Below are positions 8,889 to 20,191 of a DNA stretch of 32,000 nt, in pieces. The notes beneath the pieces are model-generated. The model saw only the letters and a program-made list of their open reading frames with translations, had not been told where the DNA came from and searched no databases. Each line of letters begins with the position of its first letter. The first letter of the stretch is position 1. The translations under genes and the position numbers were made by a program. This DNA is from Okeania sp. GTDB lineage: Bacteria; Cyanobacteriota; Cyanobacteriia; Cyanobacteriales; Microcoleaceae. Location: contig NZ_JAYKGW010000070.1 in the NCBI RefSeq assembly GCF_035285525.1, positions 1-32,000 on the forward strand, read 5' to 3'.

Positions 8889-10100
8889 TTAAAAATCAAC
8901 AACTTGACTCAGTAAAAAATCTGGGGATATTAGCCTTTCATCCAACTTTTTTTCTGCTGGTAAATATATAGCTACAGTAATATCCATAGAAGTTAAATAT
9001 TTACACATTAGAGGTCCGACATCTTCCCAATCTAAACCTCCTAAACCACGTCCAAGTGCAGGCATAGCTAAAGATTTTATGCCTTGTTTTTGATAATTAT
9101 TGGCAAGCCATTCTAAACCATTTTTTATATCTTCAATTTCCGAAGCATTTCGCCAATGTTTTTTGGTGGGAAAGAGCAAAAACCATTTTTGTTCATTATT
9201 CAAAAAATCTTGAGGGAGAAAAAATTTACTATCTCCTAATTGTTCTTTTACGGATGATTCTCTTTTATATAAATATGGCTTTCCTATTTGCAAATATTTG
9301 CTTTTACAAACTTCTTGGTATCTAACATAAACATCTGGAAATCTATATTTTGCTGTTGATGCTAATCCTTTTCCCATCACACCAACACAATTAACACTTA
9401 CAGTCAAAGTTTGCATATTAGAAAAGAACATATCCCCGCGAATCAGAGAAATATTTTCTGTTAACTTTCGACTCCATTCTGGTTGGAAAAACTTTGTTGG
9501 TTCAACTACAATAGAAATATTTTTACCATAATTATTTCGGGCAAAAGTGTCTCTTAAAGATTGATTGGCTTTTTCACAAGCCACATAAATAGTTTGAATA
9601 TTAGTAGCAGGAACTACATCAGGAACTAAACATTCAGCCATAATTTTTCTTTTAGAACCATCCTCATTACTCCACCATTCTTTATCGGTTTCTTTTTTAA
9701 TTTGTTTCAGAATATTTAATTCTTCTGCTTCCTGAATAGAAATAATTTCCGAATCGTTATGAGCAGCATTCCCTGTAGTAATCCAAATATCTCTTCTAGT
9801 TAAAATATCTCGTTTCACTGAAATAATAACAATTTCTTCAATAGCATATTTATGAATAATTGAGTAAAGCATTGCATTTATAGGTTGAAAGTAAAGATTC
9901 GCAAAGCTCCACAATGATTTATTATTAAAAACTATTTTTTGATAACGATTATCGACTATTTGTGAGTTGTAAATTGTTGTAGGTTTTAGTTGATTATATT
10001 CTATTAATTGGTGAGATAGAATGCCTTTCTCTAAAATAGAGATGATATTTTCGATATGAGTAATATAGAATAAATTTTGAATACTTGTTTTGTGTACCAT
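8889..10100 (-). CDS. DarT-like (DUF4433) ADP-ribosyltransferase fused to a DarG-type macrodomain
   Basis: Residues 1-205 carry DarT hallmarks: LFYITHIENIISIL..G.LS, DNR, ANLYFQPINAMLYSI, ITTGNAA, KIMAECLVPD...IQTIYV, and an end ISIVVEPTKFF like the DarT C-terminus. Residues about 215-385 carry DarG-type macro motifs: GDMF, VNCVGVMGKGLA, FPTKKHWR, AMPALGRGLGGLDWEDV. It is an intact 403-aa ORF. Confidence 0.85.
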   Translation of the reverse strand: MVHKTSIQNLFYITHIENIISILEKGILSHQLIEYNQLKPTTIYNSQIVDNRYQKIVFNNKSLWSFANLYFQPINAMLYSIIHKYAIEEIVIISVKRDILTRRDIWITTGNAAHNDSEIISIQEAEELNILKQIKKETDKEWWSNEDGSKRKIMAECLVPDVVPATNIQTIYVACEKANQSLRDTFARNNYGKNISIVVEPTKFFQPEWSRKLTENISLIRGDMFFSNMQTLTVSVNCVGVMGKGLASTAKYRFPDVYVRYQEVCKSKYLQIGKPYLYKRESSVKEQLGDSKFFLPQDFLNNEQKWFLLFPTKKHWRNASEIEDIKNGLEWLANNYQKQGIKSLAMPALGRGLGGLDWEDVGPLMCKYLTSMDITVAIYLPAEKKLDERLISPDFLLSQVVDF

Positions 10101-10657: not shown

Positions 10658-10930
10658 TCAGACATTTTCCTTAATAAAATAATGTAAAGATTTAGTAGAA
10701 ACTACATCGACTTTTCTATTTAAAAGCTGTTCTAAATCTTCTATTAAACCAACAGGAAACCAAGGAGAAATCTTAGACAAATCATAATCAATCAAAAAAT
10801 CTATGTCACTATTTTCTGCCTCTTCTCCCCTAGCTACCGAGCCAAACACCCTGACATTAAATGACCCATGTTTAGCAGCTAAAGCTAATATTTCCTCTCG
10901 TTTTTATTGTAAGTATTTCTTAAGTTTCAT
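10658..10930 (-). pseudogene. mntA: MntA-type nucleotidyltransferase antitoxin gene with a premature stop at codon 9
   Basis: ATG at 10930 gives MKLKKYLQ*(TAA 10904-10906)KREEILALAAKHGSFNVRVFGSVARGEEAENSDIDFLIDYD..., with the minimal nucleotidyltransferase motif GSxxRGx(n)SDxDxL. The track ORF 10658..10849 is only the part after an internal GTG. Confidence 0.75.
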
Positions 10931-11940: not shown

Positions 11941-11995
11941 GTCTTAAGCATTGAACTAAAATAGTGAGGATTTAATCATAAACGCTATTAGTAGT

Positions 11996-12098
11996 GGACT
12001 GTTTCATCTTAAATGGTGCAATAGCAAATTGGTCTGAGATTGCTTCACTATCGTTCGCAATGACAAATAATCATGCACTATTTTAGGTGAAACAGTCC
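11996..12098. mobile_element. MITE-like element with 25-nt terminal inverted repeats
   Basis: GGACTGTTTCATCTTAAATGGTGCA (11996-) versus TGCACTATTTTAGGTGAAACAGTCC (-12098). Confidence 0.6.
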
Positions 12099-12100
12099 AG

Positions 12101-12397
12101 TAGGGTATGTTACGAAGTGCGCTAACGCACCAAGGCACTATATCTATGTAGCTCCTTTGCGTAAGTTCTGATAGTAAAAAAAATCAGTATCTTGTAGAGA
12201 AAAATATCATTTCCTGATATAATATTTAGTTCATTAGTAGGACTTACGCAAAGGTACTATATATATAGATATATAGTCAAAAAACTATTGCGTATGGGGT
12301 TACACTATATCTATGGTCGCTGCGTAAGTCTTGAAAAGTACTATGTATGGCGTATTGGTGCGTTACGAAGTGCGCTAACACACCCTACCACTGAAAA
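12101..12397. repeat. composite repeat bounded by inverted GTAGGGT.TGTTA..GCGC..ACGCACCAA ends, containing ACTTACGCAAAGGTACTATATA / GCGTAAGTC modules
   Basis: The ends are at 12101-12134 and 12364-12397. The internal module at 12241-12334 recurs downstream of the helicase at 17680-17769. Confidence 0.6.
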
Positions 12398-12398
12398 A

Positions 12399-12425
12399 GC
12401 TGATAACTGATAACTGATAACTGAA
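12399..12425 (+). repeat. STRR-like heptamer array (CTGATAA)x3 abutting the helicase start codon
   Basis: GCTGATAACTGATAACTGATAACTGAA followed directly by ATG at 12426. Confidence 0.9.
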
Positions 12426-15400
12426 ATGGCAATATACCAAACCGAACCATCTAAATTTTCCCAATTACTCAAAAAAGTAAAAAATGGAGACGAACTCAAC
12501 CTCCAACCAGGAGATTACAAAGCTCCTTTTACCATTGATAAATCAATTACTATTCGTGGTAGCGGCACCGATACCGTAATTTTTGCTGCCACCGAAACTC
12601 CTCTCACCATAACAGTTCCCGAAGTACGATTGGAAAATCTCACAGTGGAGCGTACAGTTGGTGGCGAACAAGGGGAAGTTGCTATATTTGCCGAACCTAA
12701 TACTAAACCCATTTTGAGTCAAGTCAAATTAAATGGGGTTGCGGAAAATGTGGAATGGGAGGGAGCAAGTTGGGATATTCCCACGATGCTCGATTTTGGG
12801 GAAGTAGAAATTAACCGACAAGTGGAACGAGGATGGGAGTTACAACTGGGTGCGGTTTGTCAGGTTTTGTGTAATCTAAATTGGTTGCAGGTGCGCTCCA
12901 GTTATCTTTCACCGGGACGACAAAATTTGGATTTGGTGTTGAATACTGCTGATGTTCCTACTGGTACAAATTTATCTGGTTTAATTTCTCTGTTTTCAGA
13001 AGGTGGGAGACGAGAGTTGGAGGTTGCTGCTAAGGTTATTTCCTCAGCTCCGGCAACTCCAGTGGTGGCAGTGGAAACACAAGATTTATCTGCTAAAGTT
13101 TTGACTTCTCAAGATTGGGGTTATCGGTTTATCGGTAGTGCGGTGGATAGGTTGGTTCGGACTCAGTTGGGTGAAAGTGCCATGAAGAAATATCCAGAAT
13201 TTTCGGATCGTCGCGCGAAAGCAGAATTATTGATGTCTGAGATATTGGATGAAGATTCTCATTTATATTATGTGCGTCGTCAAGCACCGGGAAAGGAAGA
13301 GGGGGAGGAAGTTTGGGAACTGACAATGGCTACGGATAGGGAGGATGAATGGGAAAAAACGTTGAAACTTAGGGGAGCAGTTAATATTGATGGAGACAGG
13401 GTTTTCAAAATATTATCGGTGCAGTTTATTTCTCATAAAGCAGAAGCAGATGAGTTTAGTGTTGCTTTGCAAATCCGTTTATTGCCACAACATCAGTTCC
13501 GACGAAAGATACCATTGGGAGCGGTGCGCTCTATCCAAAAAATGCCTTTTTTTGGCGATCGCTTACTAACGGAGGATCAACTTCCTATTTGGACGACTTT
13601 TGTGAAAATGGAGCAGCGTCTCGCAGAAAAACGTCAATTTTGTTTACCTTATTCTAGTCACAACTACGGTAGTGCTAAGAAAAGGATTACTTTTGAAATT
13701 GATATTCGGGCGGCAACTATTGATGGAACGCCAGAAACTTCTCTGGAAGATATGGAGTTACGGCGACGACTTTTTGAGGCAAAAAATCAAAATATTCAAC
13801 TTTTTTCCAGTTCTCCAGCAGGTAGGGATGGTAGAGATGGGGAAAAGTTGGGAGCGATCGCTTCTATTGATTGGGAGAAGAGTCAAGTACGGATCGCGTT
13901 GGATAGTGAGATTGTGGAAAGTATTGTTCGTGGGAGTTATCGTATACCGTCTACAGGATTTTTATTTTTTGTGGATTCTGGAGATATTGCTCAGGTGCAA
14001 CGGAAACGAAGAGCGTTGGAAGATTTACAAAATGGTCGTTGTCAGAATCCATATTTGGGGGAATTTTTCTTTGATGCTACTTGTGCGCGAGTTCCAAAAA
14101 AGCGAGTGGAACTGCAACCCCAGAATTTATTGTTACCTGCTGCGAATGCTCATCAACTTGCTGCTGTGGAAAAGGTTTTGGCAGCAAAAGATTTGGCTTT
14201 GATTCAGGGTCCTCCTGGTACTGGGAAAACTACTGTGATTGCGGAAATTTGTTATCAAGTTGCGTTACGGGGAGGGCGGACTTTGATTGCGTCTCAGGCA
14301 AATTTGGCGGTTGATAATGCTTTGAGCAGGTTGGTTCATAATCCGGTGATTCGTGCTGTACGCAAGGGAAAAGCTGAGAAGGTGCAAGTGGAAGGGGAGC
14401 CATTTTTGGAGGAACGGGTGATTGATACTTGGTTAAAAAATACTGCTAATGATTGTGAAAAAGATTTGGGGGAGCGACTGCAACGGGTGGAAGTTTTACG
14501 GAATTTATTGATAGAGTCTGAGAGATTTAATGGTTATTTCGAGTTGGAGAAAAAATGGGTAAATGAACAGAAGGAGTTGAGCGATCGCCAAATTATTTTG
14601 GAGGCAAGTCGGATAGCATTGGAGGCTGAATTTTTGCAGTTGGAAACTGATAGGAAGGAGTTAGATTTTTTGGTATTGGGATTAGATAATTTGTTAAATT
14701 CTGCACCGAATATTAATTGGGAAAATGAGGAAGTTAGAATTTTTTTAGCTCGTTTACAACCTTATGCTCAGGAGGAAAGTTCGGTTAAAGATTTAATAGA
14801 GAATGTGGGTTTAGGTCGGAATCTTGCTAAAGATATTGGTTGGGAAATTCCGCAATTAGGAGCTTTTGGTTTAGCAGTTTGGTTACAGGAAAATTTAGTT
14901 GTTTTATTGCCAGAATTTCAGAGTGGTTTAGCTGTGGCAAAAAAAGCTGTTTTGGCAATGTCGGAAACTGAGAAATTATTACAGATTTATCAACAGGTTC
15001 ATGGTAATTTTGAGCGGTTGAAAAAAGATATTCAGCAAGGAGAGATAATTTCAGAAAGTTTAGGAGAAAAGCGTCAAGAATTAGAAAGGGAAAAAAGTCA
15101 GATAGATTTAGTTGTTGGAGAAGTAGGTGTCTGGATAAAAAAAATTGGTAAAGAACGGATATTTGAGGAATTGAAAAAATGTTGGGAAACTGGTGAAAGT
15201 TTTCAATTAGATTCAATTGGATTACCAGAAAGTTTAATGAAAGTTGCTAGTAGAGAAAAATTACAACTTTTGCCAAATTATGCTCAACGGATTAATCATT
15301 TGCCAGATTGGGAAAGATTGGAAAAAGCATTAAATGCCGAGTCAAGTCGTGGCTTTAAAAATATCCAAGGAAAAGAATATCGTTTTGATGAATTTTTACA

Positions 15401-17387
15401 AATTACTCTGAGTCAAGCACCGATAGTTTTGTCAGAAAGAGATTATCAAAACTGGCAAGAGTTTGCTAAATCATTTATAAATTATCCCCAACTTGGTCAA
15501 CAAGAACGACAAAGTTTAGTGAGAAAAATTCAACAATTTTTCCATAAAAATAAACAGAAATATAGTTTAGTTTGGCAACCAGAGAATATAACAAAAACTT
15601 TCACAGAAGTGATAGATAAAATTTTCAATAAAATTCTCCATAATTCTCGTGAATTTTTACTTCCTGCTAAACAAGAAAATCTCAAACAAATCCTGAAAAA
15701 TGAGAAACTATCAGAGGAAAATATACAATTATTGGCAAACCAGAGACAAAGACTAGAAATAGTCGATAAAAAAGGAAAAGATTCTCGACAAAAACTGGAA
15801 GAAAAATATCAAGAGCTTGTGGCAATTTTAAAAGAAATAGATTCTCAAACAGGAGTTAATCCAGAAATTAGCGATTTAGTCAAACAATATCTTGAATGGC
15901 AACCATTGCAGATATTAAACGATAAATCAAATTTTGCCGAAAAAGTAAATTATTGGGAAAATAGTTTAAATCAACTTAAAAAAATATCTCCTCAACTACA
16001 ACCTTTTACCGTTCTGAAAGAAATCAAAAATATTCTCCAAGAAAGACTAAACACCATCCAAGAAAAAGCCGATAAATTGCCGGAAAAAATCGAATCTTGC
16101 CAAACAAAAATTAATCAAATTAAAACGGAATTAGAACAAACATTACCAACCAACTTAATTCAAGAAAGAAACTGGTGGAAATTAGCATGGTCAAAAATTC
16201 CAGAAAATCTCAAACCCGCCGTTGAGGAAACAGAATTATTTGCCATCGAACTATTACATAAAATTAAACTGCAACAGAAAAATTGGCAACAAGAATTAGA
16301 AACAGAAGAAACCCTCCTAAATCAACACCAAAAATTTATTCAAGACTGGATAAAAAAACTCAAACAACCTTCAGAAAAAGATAGTAACGAGCTGAGAAAA
16401 ATTTACCTTGATAATGCCAACGTTATTGGTATTACCTGCGTCCAAGCTGCCAGTCGAAACTTTGCCGAAGAATTTAATAGTTTCGACGTCGTAATAATAG
16501 ATGAAGTTAGTAAATGTACTCCTCCAGAAATATTAATTCCGGCATTAAAAGGCAAAAAATTAGTATTAGTAGGAGACCATCGTCAATTACCACCAATGCT
16601 TAACGATAATACCATTGAAGAAATTGCTGAAGAGATGAAAATTTCCAAAGAAGAATTAGACTTTTTAGAAGAATCACTCTTTAAAACTCACTTCGAGACA
16701 GCCAAAGAAGAAATCAAACAAATGTTAACTATTCAATATAGAATGCACCCCAATATTATGGGAGCAATTAATCAATTTTATCAACATCGTTTAGAATGCG
16801 GTCTTATCAGACCAGACAAAAAACGTTCCCATAATTTAGAAGGTAAAATTATTCAAGAAAATCAACATCTTATCTGGGTAAAAATGCCACAGTCAGAAAA
16901 CTTTATGGAACAAAAAGAAGGAACATCACCTTTTAACAAAAAAGAAGTTGATGCCATTGAAAAAATATGTGGAGAAATGGAGAAATCTTGGTCTGTGAAA
17001 GTTGCTGAGGGTTTGCCAAGAAAAGAATTAGGAATTATTACATTTTATAATGCTCAGTTGCGATTAATAGAGTCGAGAATTAATCCTGAAAATTTTCCAT
17101 CCTTACATATTAGAACTGGAACAGTTGATAGATTTCAAGGAATGGAAAGACAGGTAATTATTGTTAGTATGGTCAGAAATAATGACTTAGGAAAAGTAGG
17201 ATTTGCCAAGAAACCAGAACGGGTAAATGTTGCTTTTTCTCGCGCTCAAGAATTGTTAATTATTGTGGGATGTCATAAATTATTTACACAACATTATGGA
17301 ACTGTAGGAAATATGTATTCAGAAGTTTCTGATGTGGTGCGCAGTCAAGGGGGATTGATAGAAATTTCAGATATTTTAATGACCTAA
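12426..17387 (+). CDS. 1653-aa Upf1/DNA2-like superfamily-1 helicase with a coiled-coil insertion of about 700 aa in the ATPase core and an unassigned N-terminal region
   Basis: One long ORF. Walker A GPPGTGKTT is at 14208-14234 (res 595-603), then motif Ia LIASQANLAVDNAL. Motif II VIIDEVSK comes only at 16491-16514 (res 1356-1363). It is followed by VLVGDHRQLPP, TIQYRMHP, GTVDRFQGMERQVIIVSMVRNN and RVNVAFSRAQELLIIVG. The stretch at residues about 640-1330 is K/E/Q/L-rich. The N-terminus starts with a beta-helix-like GDELNLQPGDY..PFTIDKSITIRGSG motif. Confidence 0.9.
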   Translation: MAIYQTEPSKFSQLLKKVKNGDELNLQPGDYKAPFTIDKSITIRGSGTDTVIFAATETPLTITVPEVRLENLTVERTVGGEQGEVAIFAEPNTKPILSQVKLNGVAENVEWEGASWDIPTMLDFGEVEINRQVERGWELQLGAVCQVLCNLNWLQVRSSYLSPGRQNLDLVLNTADVPTGTNLSGLISLFSEGGRRELEVAAKVISSAPATPVVAVETQDLSAKVLTSQDWGYRFIGSAVDRLVRTQLGESAMKKYPEFSDRRAKAELLMSEILDEDSHLYYVRRQAPGKEEGEEVWELTMATDREDEWEKTLKLRGAVNIDGDRVFKILSVQFISHKAEADEFSVALQIRLLPQHQFRRKIPLGAVRSIQKMPFFGDRLLTEDQLPIWTTFVKMEQRLAEKRQFCLPYSSHNYGSAKKRITFEIDIRAATIDGTPETSLEDMELRRRLFEAKNQNIQLFSSSPAGRDGRDGEKLGAIASIDWEKSQVRIALDSEIVESIVRGSYRIPSTGFLFFVDSGDIAQVQRKRRALEDLQNGRCQNPYLGEFFFDATCARVPKKRVELQPQNLLLPAANAHQLAAVEKVLAAKDLALIQGPPGTGKTTVIAEICYQVALRGGRTLIASQANLAVDNALSRLVHNPVIRAVRKGKAEKVQVEGEPFLEERVIDTWLKNTANDCEKDLGERLQRVEVLRNLLIESERFNGYFELEKKWVNEQKELSDRQIILEASRIALEAEFLQLETDRKELDFLVLGLDNLLNSAPNINWENEEVRIFLARLQPYAQEESSVKDLIENVGLGRNLAKDIGWEIPQLGAFGLAVWLQENLVVLLPEFQSGLAVAKKAVLAMSETEKLLQIYQQVHGNFERLKKDIQQGEIISESLGEKRQELEREKSQIDLVVGEVGVWIKKIGKERIFEELKKCWETGESFQLDSIGLPESLMKVASREKLQLLPNYAQRINHLPDWERLEKALNAESSRGFKNIQGKEYRFDEFLQITLSQAPIVLSERDYQNWQEFAKSFINYPQLGQQERQSLVRKIQQFFHKNKQKYSLVWQPENITKTFTEVIDKIFNKILHNSREFLLPAKQENLKQILKNEKLSEENIQLLANQRQRLEIVDKKGKDSRQKLEEKYQELVAILKEIDSQTGVNPEISDLVKQYLEWQPLQILNDKSNFAEKVNYWENSLNQLKKISPQLQPFTVLKEIKNILQERLNTIQEKADKLPEKIESCQTKINQIKTELEQTLPTNLIQERNWWKLAWSKIPENLKPAVEETELFAIELLHKIKLQQKNWQQELETEETLLNQHQKFIQDWIKKLKQPSEKDSNELRKIYLDNANVIGITCVQAASRNFAEEFNSFDVVIIDEVSKCTPPEILIPALKGKKLVLVGDHRQLPPMLNDNTIEEIAEEMKISKEELDFLEESLFKTHFETAKEEIKQMLTIQYRMHPNIMGAINQFYQHRLECGLIRPDKKRSHNLEGKIIQENQHLIWVKMPQSENFMEQKEGTSPFNKKEVDAIEKICGEMEKSWSVKVAEGLPRKELGIITFYNAQLRLIESRINPENFPSLHIRTGTVDRFQGMERQVIIVSMVRNNDLGKVGFAKKPERVNVAFSRAQELLIIVGCHKLFTQHYGTVGNMYSEVSDVVRSQGGLIEISDILMT

Positions 17388-17395
17388 TTTGAGTA

Positions 17396-17579
17396 TTAGG
17401 GCGGAGTTTATATAAATCTTAGAGTCAGTATTAAAATCCTAATTAAAAAGTTTTCATTAGGGCGGGTTTATATAAATCTTAGAGTCAGTATTAAAATCCT
17501 AATTAAAAAGTTTTCATTAGGGCGGGTTTATATAAATCTTAGAGTCAGTATTAAAATCCTAATTAAAACCCGCCCCTAC
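17396..17579. repeat. three tandem 60-bp units of a GGGCGGGTTT...AAACCCGCCC hairpin MITE; only the last unit has the right terminus
   Basis: TTAGGGCGG(A)GTTTATATAAATCTTAGAGTCAGTATTAAAATCCTAATTAAAAAGTTTTCA occurs twice. A third copy ends ...AATTAAAACCCGCCCCTAC. The array begins 9 bp after the helicase stop. Confidence 0.9.
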
Positions 17580-17597
17580 TATTACAGTAATATCAAA

Positions 17598-17890
17598 TCC
17601 ACTTAATTTAGTAGAAAAAAATCTTCGATTTTCAACCATTACCAAATCTCTCCACACCAACCACACTTTTCTGAACAAAACTTACCCAAAGATACTATAT
17701 ATAAAGTCAAAAAACTGTTGCACAATAATTTTTGAAACTATATCTAAACTCTAGTGCATAAGTCCTGACTATTTAAGATCACATCCTCTTAATTTAGTAG
17801 AAAAAAATCTTCGATTTTCAACCATTACCAAATCTCTCCACACCAACCACACTTTTCTGAACAGAACTTACACAAAGATACTATACTATA
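17598..17890. repeat. two direct copies of about 105 bp, offset by 187 bp
   Basis: TCC.CTTAATTTAGTAGAAAAAAATCTTCGATTTTCAACCATTACCAAATCTCTCCACACCAACCACACTTTTCTGAACA.AACTTAC.CAAAGATACTATA occurs at 17598-17703 and 17785-17890. Confidence 0.85.
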
Positions 17891-18097: not shown

Positions 18098-20191
18098 TTA
18101 TTTAGACTTAGCTTCCTGACGTTCCTTAGCTTCCTTAATCACCACTTCTGCCACATTATTAGGACAAGGTGCATAATGAGAAAACTCCATAGAAAACTGA
18201 CCCCGACCAGAAGTCATAGTCCGCAAATCCCCAATATAACCAAACATCTCACTTAATGGCACATCCGCCTTAATACGACTACCAGTTGCTGTCGAATCTT
18301 GAGACTTAATCATACCCCGACGACGATTAAGATCTCCAATCACATCACCAACATGATCGTCAGGAGTAAACACATCAACCTTCATTATCGGTTCCAATAA
18401 CTGAGGAGAAGCTTTAGAAAAAGACTGACGATAAGCAGCTTTCGCAGCAATCTCAAAAGCGATCGCTGAGGAGTCAACCGGGTGGAAAGCGCCATCCGTT
18501 AATGTGAACTTCATATCCACACAAGGATAACCAGCTAACATACCCTTGGCAAAACTACTCTCAAAACCTTTTTGTACAGCAGGCCAAAATTCTCTGGGCA
18601 CATTTCCACCAGTCACCTTTGACTCGAACTGGAAACCTTCACCAGTTTCAGCAGGTTCCATCACATAATCAATCTTAGCAAATTGACCAGAACCGCCAGA
18701 CTGCTTCTTATGAGTATAGCTATCTTCAAGACGCTTAGTAATAGATTCACGATAAGCTACCTGTGGTTTACCAACTTCCACATCAACTCCATAAGTCCGT
18801 TTCAGAATATCAACCTTAATATCCAAATGTAATTCACCCATACCCTTAATGATGGTTTCATTACTTTCAGCATCTGTTTCAACTCGGAAAGATGGGTCTT
18901 CCTGAACCATTTTACTCAATGCCAAGCCCAATTTTTCTACAGAACCTTTATCCTTAGCTGCCACAGCAATAGAAATTACTGGGTCAGGGAACACCATCGG
19001 TTCCAAAGTAGCAGGTTCTTTGGGGTCACAGAGAGTATGGCCAGTTTGTACATTCTTCATTCCCACAATAGCAACAATATCCCCTGCTTGAGCAGATTCA
19101 ATTTCTTCGCGGGAGTTGGCGTGCATTTCTACCAAACGTCCAACTCTCTCAGTCTTACCTGTAAAAGTATTAAGAACGGTGTCGCCTTTAGACAAAGTAC
19201 CAGAATAGATACGGGTAAAAGTCAAAGCACCATATTTGTCATCCATAATCTTAAAGGCCAAAGCTCGCAGTGGCTTTTCTGGATCGACATAGGCTACTTT
19301 ACCAGTCTCGTTACCTTCGAGGTCAATTTCTGGTTGTGGCTTAACTTCTGTAGGATTAGGTAGATAATCAACTACTGCATCAAGTACCAACTGTACGCCC
19401 TTATTTTTGAAAGATGAACCACAGTAGGTGGGGAAGAAAGCTAAGTCCCTAGTACCCTTACGAATACAACGTTTGAGAGTATCAATATCTGGCTCTTCTC
19501 CTTCCAAATATTGTTCCATTACGTCGTCGTCTTGCTCTACAGCAGTTTCAATTAACATTTCCCGATATTTCTCAACATCATCAACCATATTCTCTGGAAC
19601 ATCTTTAATCTCATATTTGGTTGGGTCTCCAGAATCATCCCAAATCCATGCTTTGCGGGTTAGCAAATCCACAACTCCCACAAAATCATTTTCAATACCA
19701 ATTGGTAATACCATTACTAATGGTTTGGCCGCGAGTACATCTTCTACCTGCTTGACAACTCTGTAGAAATCTGCTCCTGTGCGGTCTAACTTATTTACAT
19801 AGATAATTCGAGCAACTTTAGAATCATTAGCATAACGCCAGTTAGTTTCAGATTGGGGTTCTACACCACCAGAACCACAAAATACACCTACACCACCATC
19901 GAGAACCTTGAGGGAACGATATACTTCGATGGTAAAGTCAACGTGGCCAGGGGTGTCAATAATATTTAATTGATGGTTATTCCAGAAGCAACTTGTGGCA
20001 GCGGACTGAATCGTAATACCACGTTCTTGCTCCTGTTCCATAAAGTCTGTTGTCGCGGCACCTTCGTGGACCTCACCGATTTTATGAATTTTTCCGGTTA
20101 GTTTCAAAATTCTTTCTGTTGTGGTGGTTTTGCCCGCATCAACGTGGGCGAAGATGCCAAAATTGCGATAACGAGTGAGGTCTTTTGCCAT
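18098..20191 (-). CDS. fusA: elongation factor G, a stand-alone copy not in an rpsL-rpsG-fusA-tuf context
   Basis: 697 aa with G1 [13 protein letters not shown]3 DTPGHVDF, G4 NKLD and EF-G domains II-V (e.g. GELHLDI, GQFA, HPVDSS). Confidence 0.92.

Follow-up and report, generated by a model that had tools for sequence, protein, structure and literature searches.

A single open reading frame (ORF) of 4962 nucleotides in the genome of Okeania sp. raises the question of why a helicase should carry 678 additional residues inside its ATPase core, and to which kind of system such a protein belongs. The ORF lies in contig NZ_JAYKGW010000070.1 (assembly GCF_035285525.1), of which positions 1 to 32,000 of the forward strand were analysed; this whole stretch of 32,000 nucleotides (nt) is referred to as the window. 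A preliminary description, made from the letters of the window, had presented the product as a giant superfamily 1 (SF1) helicase of undescribed architecture and as a candidate for nucleic acid surveillance or defence. In our study, we read the gene, with a probability of about 0.6, as an orphan belonging to a so far undescribed variant of type I Mokosh, an anti-phage system in which a helicase (MkoA) is accompanied by a nuclease (MkoB). The family has no kinase domain of the MkoA type, and its long arm insert is missing from the MkoA profiles; the split core alone is not unique.

The helicase gene was found to be a single ORF of 1653 uninterrupted codons, with all motifs intact and located where the preliminary description had placed them. 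The Walker A motif GPPGTGKT starts at residue 595 (nt 14208) and contains K601, and motif II, VIIDEVSK, starts at residue 1356 (nt 16491) and contains D1359 and E1360; the two motifs are 761 residues apart. The Pfam family AAA_11 was matched in two pieces, at residues 573–630 and 1185–1392, followed by AAA_12 at residues 1414–1617, and ABC_tran reached only 13.5 bits at the P-loop in the same scan. The assignment to the Upf1/DNA2-like SF1 helicases was borne out both by sequence, where the best solved-structure matches of the core were UPF1, IGHMBP2, DNA2, and Sen1, and by fold, where the Foldseek search of the PDB returned DNA2, IGHMBP2, UPF1, and Sen1/SETX. In the alignment to human UPF1 (2xzo), residues 570–647 corresponded to chain positions 177–253 and residues 1325–1633 to positions 313–603, and the 678 residues in between occupy the place of a UPF1 domain, 1C, of about 60 residues. 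No nuclease, kinase, or phospholipase D (PLD) domain was found in the helicase protein by Pfam, PADLOC, or Foldseek, as had been claimed for nuclease and PLD motifs in its N-terminal part. An Okeania sp. protein annotated as "AAA domain-containing protein" was 100% identical to the window helicase.

The ratio of non-synonymous to synonymous substitution rates (dN/dS) against five relatives ranged from 0.22 to 0.26 overall, with 0.12–0.15 in the core, 0.27–0.41 in the insert, and 0.21–0.27 in the N-terminus, and it was similar against partner-bearing and partner-less relatives. The window gene is intact and under purifying selection (dN/dS of about 0.25). With this length, at a GC content of about 34%, and with full-length orthologues that give such ratios, the ORF is not a product of chance. 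The nucleotide composition was found to shift within the gene (window 12000–17000): the GC content of the first half was 0.40–0.43, with a GC skew of up to +0.39, and that of the half encoding the arm and the core was 0.30–0.33, with an AT skew of +0.23 to +0.29. The shift probably reflects the Lys/Glu/Gln/Asn-rich arm.

Both PADLOC profiles of MkoA matched the helicase very strongly (PDLC03920, E-value (E) 2.6e-115; PDLC03921, E 2.1e-102). The match to PDLC03920 covered only model positions 619–1096 of 1112 and was made of two fragments, residues 576–676 on positions 619–721 and residues 1296–1637 on positions 741–1096, which leave no room for the insert. The preliminary description had considered that the full architecture might fall within a characterised family such as MkoA; the core does so, whereas the insert and the N-terminal module lie outside the MkoA profiles. 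Canonical MkoA fused to a Ser/Thr kinase (STK-MkoA), as encoded on a C. botulinum plasmid, contains 175 residues between Walker A and motif II. Type I MkoA carries a Ser/Thr kinase domain, and defence by type I Mokosh requires the ATP-binding site of the helicase as well as the PLD active site (Millman et al., 2022; 10.1101/2022.05.11.491447). The window helicase shares with type I Mokosh the Upf1-like core of the COG1112 type. In its relatives the likeness extends to the downstream gene, which matches MkoB over the N-terminal and PLD domains and contains the HxKxxxxD motif, and to the gene order, with the helicase first, the nuclease second, and the reading frames often overlapping. The helicase differs from type I Mokosh in that it has no Ser/Thr kinase domain, a separate kinase gene being found near many relatives instead, and in its arm insert, which is absent from both MkoA profiles and from canonical STK-MkoA. 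The N-terminal modules differ as well, and the effector is absent in the window and variable across the family. MkoC, the protein of type II Mokosh, was also matched (E 7.8e-27), and that match, out of 1136 model positions, reached no further than position 950 and so fell short of the C-terminal stretch (976–1119) to which the PLD region of the MkoB-like partners corresponds. Type II Mokosh was rejected, since the helicase protein stops right after RecA2 and has no PLDc match.

Relatives were searched in one genome per species. At least 546 matches were obtained, and the best 80, which were fetched, all came from filamentous cyanobacteria and matched the whole 1093-residue query. Partner genes were classified over the 76 informative loci, that is, those with enough downstream sequence. 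A full MkoB-like gene, with adaptor and PLD domains, was found nearby in 29 of them, mostly just downstream of the helicase or overlapping its stop codon, and the partner often started 16 nt before that stop. The adaptor domain of these partners has about 280 residues and is fused to the PLD nuclease domain. An adaptor-only gene of about 300 residues without the HKD motif was present at 27 loci, an adaptor fused to DarT at one locus, and no partner at 19 loci, the window included. The helicase of Trichodesmium erythraeum IMS101 is 76% identical to that of the window, and the next gene there encodes a 614-residue protein that matches MkoB (PADLOC, E 8.4e-36) and contains HAKEVLVD. The next gene was also MkoB-like in Laspinema and Microcoleus, and the close relatives Okeania SIO2F4 and Dapis M172 keep MkoB about 3 kb downstream. 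On the plasmid pC052_C of Nostoc sp. C052 (L089, 6349–13097), a family member of 1246 residues is flanked by pglX and pglZ within a BREX-1 locus, followed by the MkoB-type adaptor fused to DarT and by an ADP-ribosylglycohydrolase; at this locus an ADP-ribosyltransferase has taken the place of PLD as the effector.

A gene encoding a Ser/Thr kinase joined to GUN4, a porphyrin-binding domain (STK-GUN4), recurs beside the helicase (L009 5005–6408, L014 11247–12695, and L035 3214–4740, all on the minus strand, and about 20 further loci). It was found in two arrangements, divergent upstream in about 20 Microcoleus/Oscillatoriales loci and, in Okeania SIO2F4 and Dapis M172, placed after the helicase and before MkoB. 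Since close relatives are numerous among these genomes, the loci amount to few independent observations. The STK-GUN4 gene may be the counterpart of the kinase domain that is fused to canonical MkoA.

The insert emerges from RecA1 after motif Ia and returns to it before motif II, in the place of domain 1C in UPF1 and of the "prong" in Sen1. In the AlphaFold2 (AF2) model of residues 561–1653, built on 40 family sequences, it consisted of an outbound helical arm, a globular tip, and a return arm (Table 1), with a predicted local distance difference test score (pLDDT) mostly between 80 and 90. The two arms were nearly equal in length (263 and 259 residues), and about 390 residues per 520 were helical arm, in addition to the globular tip. 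Foldseek aligned 800–1000 columns of the model to MukB, Smc5/6, condensin, cohesin, JetC, and Rad50 in the PDB, which supports the earlier suggestion of a long SMC/Rad50-like coiled coil between Walker A and Walker B. That suggestion had also described one continuous coil of about 700 residues without Pro or Gly; the long helical arms were recovered, whereas the continuity was not, since the insert was divided into two arms of about 260 residues and a tip of about 130 and contained 21 Pro and 24 Gly. In the average over the family alignment, both arms showed a hydrophobic period of 3.42–3.62 residues (z 6.7–11.4 against shuffles), and RecA2 showed none. This analysis superseded a crude heptad score, by which the outbound arm was not separable from shuffled sequences.

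Natural length variants of the family have deletions that are symmetric about the tip, at residues 858–1113 in the 1423-residue Microcoleus forms (P0038 and P0051) and at residues 950–1050 in P0036. Such deletions would be expected if stretches of the two arms pair in antiparallel fashion, and the predicted arm is apparently antiparallel and extended rather than a compact bundle. If straight, it would reach about 35–40 nm. No significant Pfam or PADLOC match was found for residues 701–1289. The insert alone, searched against 1.84 billion representative proteins, matched only 149 clusters and drew no generic coiled-coil noise. These matches formed two groups, large helicases of the same kind and about 90 small proteins that cover residues 957–1047 only, and no other split-core defence helicase family appeared by name among the 149 clusters. 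No relevant literature was found on a coiled coil in Mokosh, on cyanobacterial Upf1-like helicases, on PLuB, or on the structure of DUF4011.

Within the tip, a domain was found whose homologue forms the N-terminus of cyanobacterial RecG. The NCBIfam RecG model NF008170 matched residues 956–1091 (E 3.6e-18), and BLASTP of the tip against the RecG N-terminus gave 42% identity over 90 residues without gaps (E 6e-25). Those small tip-matching proteins that were scanned proved to be cyanobacterial RecG N-termini, followed by the RecG wedge and DEAD domains. No Pfam model was found for the tip domain and no literature on the N-terminal domain of cyanobacterial RecG. In P0028, which was scanned, a DnaA_N-like (STICHEL-type) domain was present in place of the tip, and the precomputed Pfam hits of P0034 also contained a DnaA_N-like domain. 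The tip thus differs between members, RecG-N-like in some and DnaA_N-like in others, and is therefore an exchangeable module. The domain of about 90 residues was also present in one kinase-WD40 protein (P0209, residues 181–271; set P0107–P0218).

Table 1. Features of the helicase gene and its flanking spacers, with window coordinates.
Feature	Residues	Position (nt)	Strand	Evidence
MkoA-like Upf1-type SF1 helicase with arm insert		12426..17387	+	Complete single ORF, 1653 residues
Short right-handed beta-helix-like cap	1-112	12426..12761	+	NosD-family NCBIfam match; AF2, short strands, pLDDT 75-91
Ig/PapD-like beta-sandwich	121-205	12786..13040	+	AF2; Foldseek PDB (HYDIN PapD-like, titin Ig and similar)
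Alpha/beta domain of unknown function	229-357	13110..13496	+	AF2; conserved in most of the family
Long helix and beta-barrel	364-535	13515..14030	+	AF2; weak MkoA profile match
RecA1, first part: Walker A (595-602, nt 14208-14231) and motif Ia	561-647	14106..14366	+	Motif, Pfam, profile, UPF1 alignment
Outbound helical arm (helices 660-695, 698-759, 768-803, 813-922)	660-922	14403..15191	+	AF2, pLDDT about 80-90; hydrophobic period 3.42, z 11.4; Foldseek, SMC-type arms
Arm tip, with four-helix domain homologous to cyanobacterial RecG N-terminus (956-1047, nt 15291-15566)	923-1054	15192..15587	+	NCBIfam, insert search, BLASTP
Return helical arm (helices 1055-1140, 1146-1157, 1162-1236, 1242-1256, 1274-1313)	1055-1313	15588..16364	+	AF2, periodicity, symmetric deletions
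RecA1 remainder (motif II VIIDEVSK, nt 16491-16514; motif III GDHRQLPP) and RecA2 (AAA_12, 1414-1617)	1325-1640	16398..17345	+	Pfam, profile, UPF1 alignment
Upstream spacer with palindromic and dispersed short repeats; promoter-like site 12195-12223		11990..12400	.	Repeat and promoter search
Repeat-filled spacer, site of the partner gene in relatives: 3 x 60-nt tandem (17406-17585) and 112-nt direct pair (17588-17699, 17774-17885)		17406..17885	.	Repeat search

The N-terminal 560 residues were modelled separately (AF2, pLDDT 78). The beta-helix-like cap and the all-beta segment read from the sequence earlier were both recovered, the latter as a sandwich of the immunoglobulin (Ig)/PapD type. 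The match of the cap to the NCBIfam NosD family, at residues 13–96, had an E of 1e-8 and lay far under the cut-off of that family. The Ig/PapD-like sandwich was followed by a linker predicted to be disordered and by the alpha/beta domain, which was found in nearly all related loci and is deleted in the 1506-residue Scytonema/Nostocales forms. Residues 383–557 weakly matched PDLC03921 at positions 862–1005, just ahead of the helicase in the MkoA profile (E 0.002). From the topology of the model and this weak match, residues 364–535 are probably a Upf1-type stalk/1B module. Beyond this match, nothing was found for residues 1–560 in Pfam or PADLOC. For the N-terminal model, Foldseek returned nothing beyond generic Ig-like matches, whose template modelling scores were lowered by the multi-domain query. 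By tblastn, the cap and the Ig module were present in just 12 of the 76 related loci, and most relatives have about 1430 residues and lack both.

In comparison with UPF1, IGHMBP2, Sen1/SETX, and DNA2, the SF1B helicases of the Upf1-like group, the window helicase has the same RecA1 and RecA2 motifs, an insertion at 1C, and a probable stalk and beta-barrel before RecA1. It differs from them in the size of the insert, and has no CH, R3H, or nuclease domains in common with them; unlike the eukaryotic Upf1-like helicases, it is prokaryotic and lies in a defence-type gene context. As in SMC, Rad50, MukB, and JetC, a long predicted helical arm runs out of the nucleotide-binding domain and back into it, separating Walker A from Walker B, with a distinct domain at its far end. 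However, the ATPase is a RecA-fold SF1 enzyme (AAA_11/AAA_12) and not an ABC-type head, and the arm strands have about 260 residues each. The RecG-N-like helical domain lies where SMC and Rad50 carry a dimerising hinge or hook. No ABC signature motif, hinge, or zinc hook was found in the window helicase. The likeness to SMC/Rad50 is one of design and not of descent.

A large insert at the same place was also found in the Hhe/DUF4011, ProA, PDC-S37, and PLuB-type helicases and in plasmid helicases of Acinetobacter and Moellerella. According to their profile coordinates, Walker A and motif II are about 600–900 positions apart in Hhe, ProA, and PDC-S37. The claim that a split core is new among SF1 helicases thus holds for the solved structures and does not hold for these families. 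Only the helicase motifs of these proteins match the window helicase, and their partner genes differ (PIN, ClpB-like). Membership in PLuB, ProA, or Hhe was rejected, since PLuB_AAA scored 155.7 bits against a cut-off of 999, ProA 37 against 1500, and Hhe 23.9 against 2000. The Nhi profile matched the Walker A fragment only (E 0.0011), and no CoCoNuT model was among the PADLOC matches of the helicase, the presence of such a model in that library not having been checked. No structure or description of the inserts of the Hhe, ProA, PDC-S37, or plasmid helicases was found in the literature. The Upf1-like helicases of the Acinetobacter (L093, 3382–12493) and Moellerella (L094, 3451–12815) plasmids have about 500 residues between Walker A and motif II, and head a conserved row of genes, whose further products are a protein with a PIN domain, a hypothetical protein, an AAA ATPase resembling ClpB, and a 4Fe-4S protein. 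The row could represent a further defence module that is led by a helicase with an arm insert.

In the window, DNA similarity to the five relatives stops at 17377–17387, where the helicase gene ends. Repeats fill the 700 nt from there to the EF-G gene; the 60-nt tandem repeat comprises two identical copies and a third at 75%, and the copies of the 112-nt pair are 96% identical. Upstream, positions 12242–12291 resemble 17680–17721, so that short repeat pieces lie on both sides and the gene is bracketed by repeats, as had been noted before. The match of the promoter-like site was not above chance expectation. The DarT-macro gene and the Uma2 gene upstream of the helicase were shared only with its closest relatives. 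The DarT-macro gene (8889–10100, minus strand) encodes 403 residues and fuses a DarT toxin (residues 11–205) to a DarG-type macrodomain (residues 217–385); DarT and DarG are normally two separate genes. The same fusion, 91% identical, lies upstream of the helicase in L013. A relationship to the DarT of the Nostoc C052 partner was rejected, no similarity being found by BLASTP at E 1e-3. A 63-residue ORF (10658–10849, minus strand) encodes a truncated nucleotidyltransferase (NTP_transf_2/Polbeta) and is probably what is left of an MNT-type antitoxin; no HEPN partner was seen near it. The elongation factor G (EF-G) family gene at 18098–20191 (minus strand) is convergent with the helicase, 700 nt downstream, and may be a divergent EF-G paralogue. 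Synteny with EF-G was rejected, since an EF-G gene lies near one Microcoleus family member only, the two being 29% identical, and near no other locus. The view of the region as an island of toxin-antitoxin and mobile-element genes was upheld in its first half by the toxin-antitoxin-like genes (DarT-macro, MNT fragment, and Uma2). However, no transposase or integrase was found in the window, and the remainder is housekeeping. No McrB/McrC-like gene was found in the window, and its PsbQ gene agrees with a cyanobacterial origin.

Several observations weigh against placing the gene with type I Mokosh. No Pkinase match was found in the whole helicase or in residues 1–560, and no kinase fold was found among the Foldseek matches. 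The 32-kb window contains no MkoB-like coding sequence and no kinase sequence, STK-GUN4 included, so the window copy is not a complete Mokosh by the two-gene rule. MkoA profiles are also known to match many unrelated Upf1-like helicases, with more than 1 million eukaryotic hits (10.1101/2022.12.12.520048). About one quarter of the related loci were partner-less and one third adaptor-only, so that the helicase may have a nuclease-independent role, and the family is very common and chromosomal in filamentous cyanobacteria. The AF2 model of residues 561–1653 had a predicted template modelling score (pTM) of 0.34, with the helicase core modelled poorly, and it is by inference that the arm pairs in antiparallel fashion.

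The breadth of the family could point instead to a housekeeping helicase of filamentous cyanobacteria, active for example in fork processing or RNA surveillance, with the tip bringing it to the site or ligand of RecG and the PLD partner as an optional accessory. The number of relatives and their host range agree with this, as do the mostly chromosomal loci, the 19 partner-less loci and the 27 without a nuclease domain, the purifying selection, and a tip shared with RecG, a repair helicase. However, synteny is not conserved, the neighbouring genes being different in Okeania, Dapis, Trichodesmium, Laspinema, Nostoc, and Microcoleus, one genus contains several paralogues with different arm lengths, and copies lie on three cyanobacterial plasmids and inside a BREX locus. 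The swapping of effectors between PLD and DarT is typical of defence modules, and a core gene would be expected to show a dN/dS lower than about 0.25. We therefore regard a housekeeping role as unlikely. The absence of a partner could also mean that the effector gene was deleted and that the helicase is becoming a pseudogene, since similarity to the relatives ends at the stop codon, repeats fill the downstream spacer, and MkoB is retained by Okeania SIO2F4 and Dapis M172. The uninterrupted ORF with its intact motifs, the dN/dS values, which are alike for partner-less and partner-bearing relatives, and the recurrence of partner-less copies in several distant lineages speak against such decay, which seems quite improbable to us.

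The preliminary description had favoured autonomous, single-protein surveillance, or surveillance assisted by the upstream Uma2 endonuclease, with the helicase itself or Uma2 as the effector. The Uma2 gene does share the strand of the helicase, 485 nt upstream of it, and two close relatives retain it; moreover, many relatives have no nuclease partner. However, a hidden Markov model built from three Uma2 genes found Uma2 in only 10 of 87 loci, in varying positions and on varying strands (11 genes in 1.38 Mb), and Uma2 was rejected as a conserved partner. The recurrent neighbours are MkoB-like genes, the next gene of relatives matching MkoB at E 8e-36, together with the STK-GUN4 kinase, and the helicase itself has no nuclease fold or motif by Pfam or Foldseek. 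This proposal is the one that we consider very unlikely. A defence role for the helicase is plausible, given the position of the Nostoc C052 copy inside BREX-1, the plasmid copies, and the window copy beside the DarT-macro gene and the MNT fragment.

If the window gene belongs to a cyanobacterial variant of type I Mokosh, it would encode the helicase, that is, the sensor or motor subunit, here without an effector gene. Upf1-like helicases are ATP-driven translocases that move in the 5'->3' direction on single strands. The core would load on the single-stranded nucleic acid of the invader and translocate 5'->3' with ATP, and the arm would either place the tip on a replication- or fork-associated ligand or mediate dimerisation. 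Because the arm emerges from within RecA1, it may couple an event at the tip to the ATPase. The adaptor would dock the effector on the helicase, and the sensing of invader nucleic acid would license the adaptor-held effector. For the window copy, which has neither an effector nor an STK-GUN4 gene nearby, the partner may be encoded elsewhere, or the copy may act alone or be a recently orphaned remnant. A bolder version, which we hold to be possible though rather unlikely, is that an SF1 motor with an SMC-like lever represents a new mechanical class of helicases. The exchangeable tip would then bind a ligand associated with the replisome or the fork, or join two molecules, gating ATP turnover and effector release from about 35–40 nm away, and partner-less copies would work alone as sensors of forks and replication intermediates or as roadblock removers.

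Among anti-phage systems, Mokosh is one of the more prevalent. Neither its mechanism nor its structure was found described in the searchable literature, and in a recent survey of 16 systems purification failed for only two, type I Mokosh being one of them (10.1101/2025.07.10.664194). The cyanobacterial variant provides naturally dissected material for its study, with arms of varied length, exchanged tips, a separate kinase, and an effector that can be PLD, DarT, the adaptor alone, or missing. The domain of about 90 residues common to the arm tip and cyanobacterial RecG is undescribed, and a shared ligand could link defence to the biology of the replication fork. The design of SMC and Rad50, with a long coiled coil passing through the nucleotide-binding domain, has apparently evolved in a RecA-fold helicase as well, and the arm makes long-range coupling testable in such an enzyme. 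The family is well defined, widespread, and experimentally tractable, and it could help to explain both Mokosh and long-range coupling in helicases.

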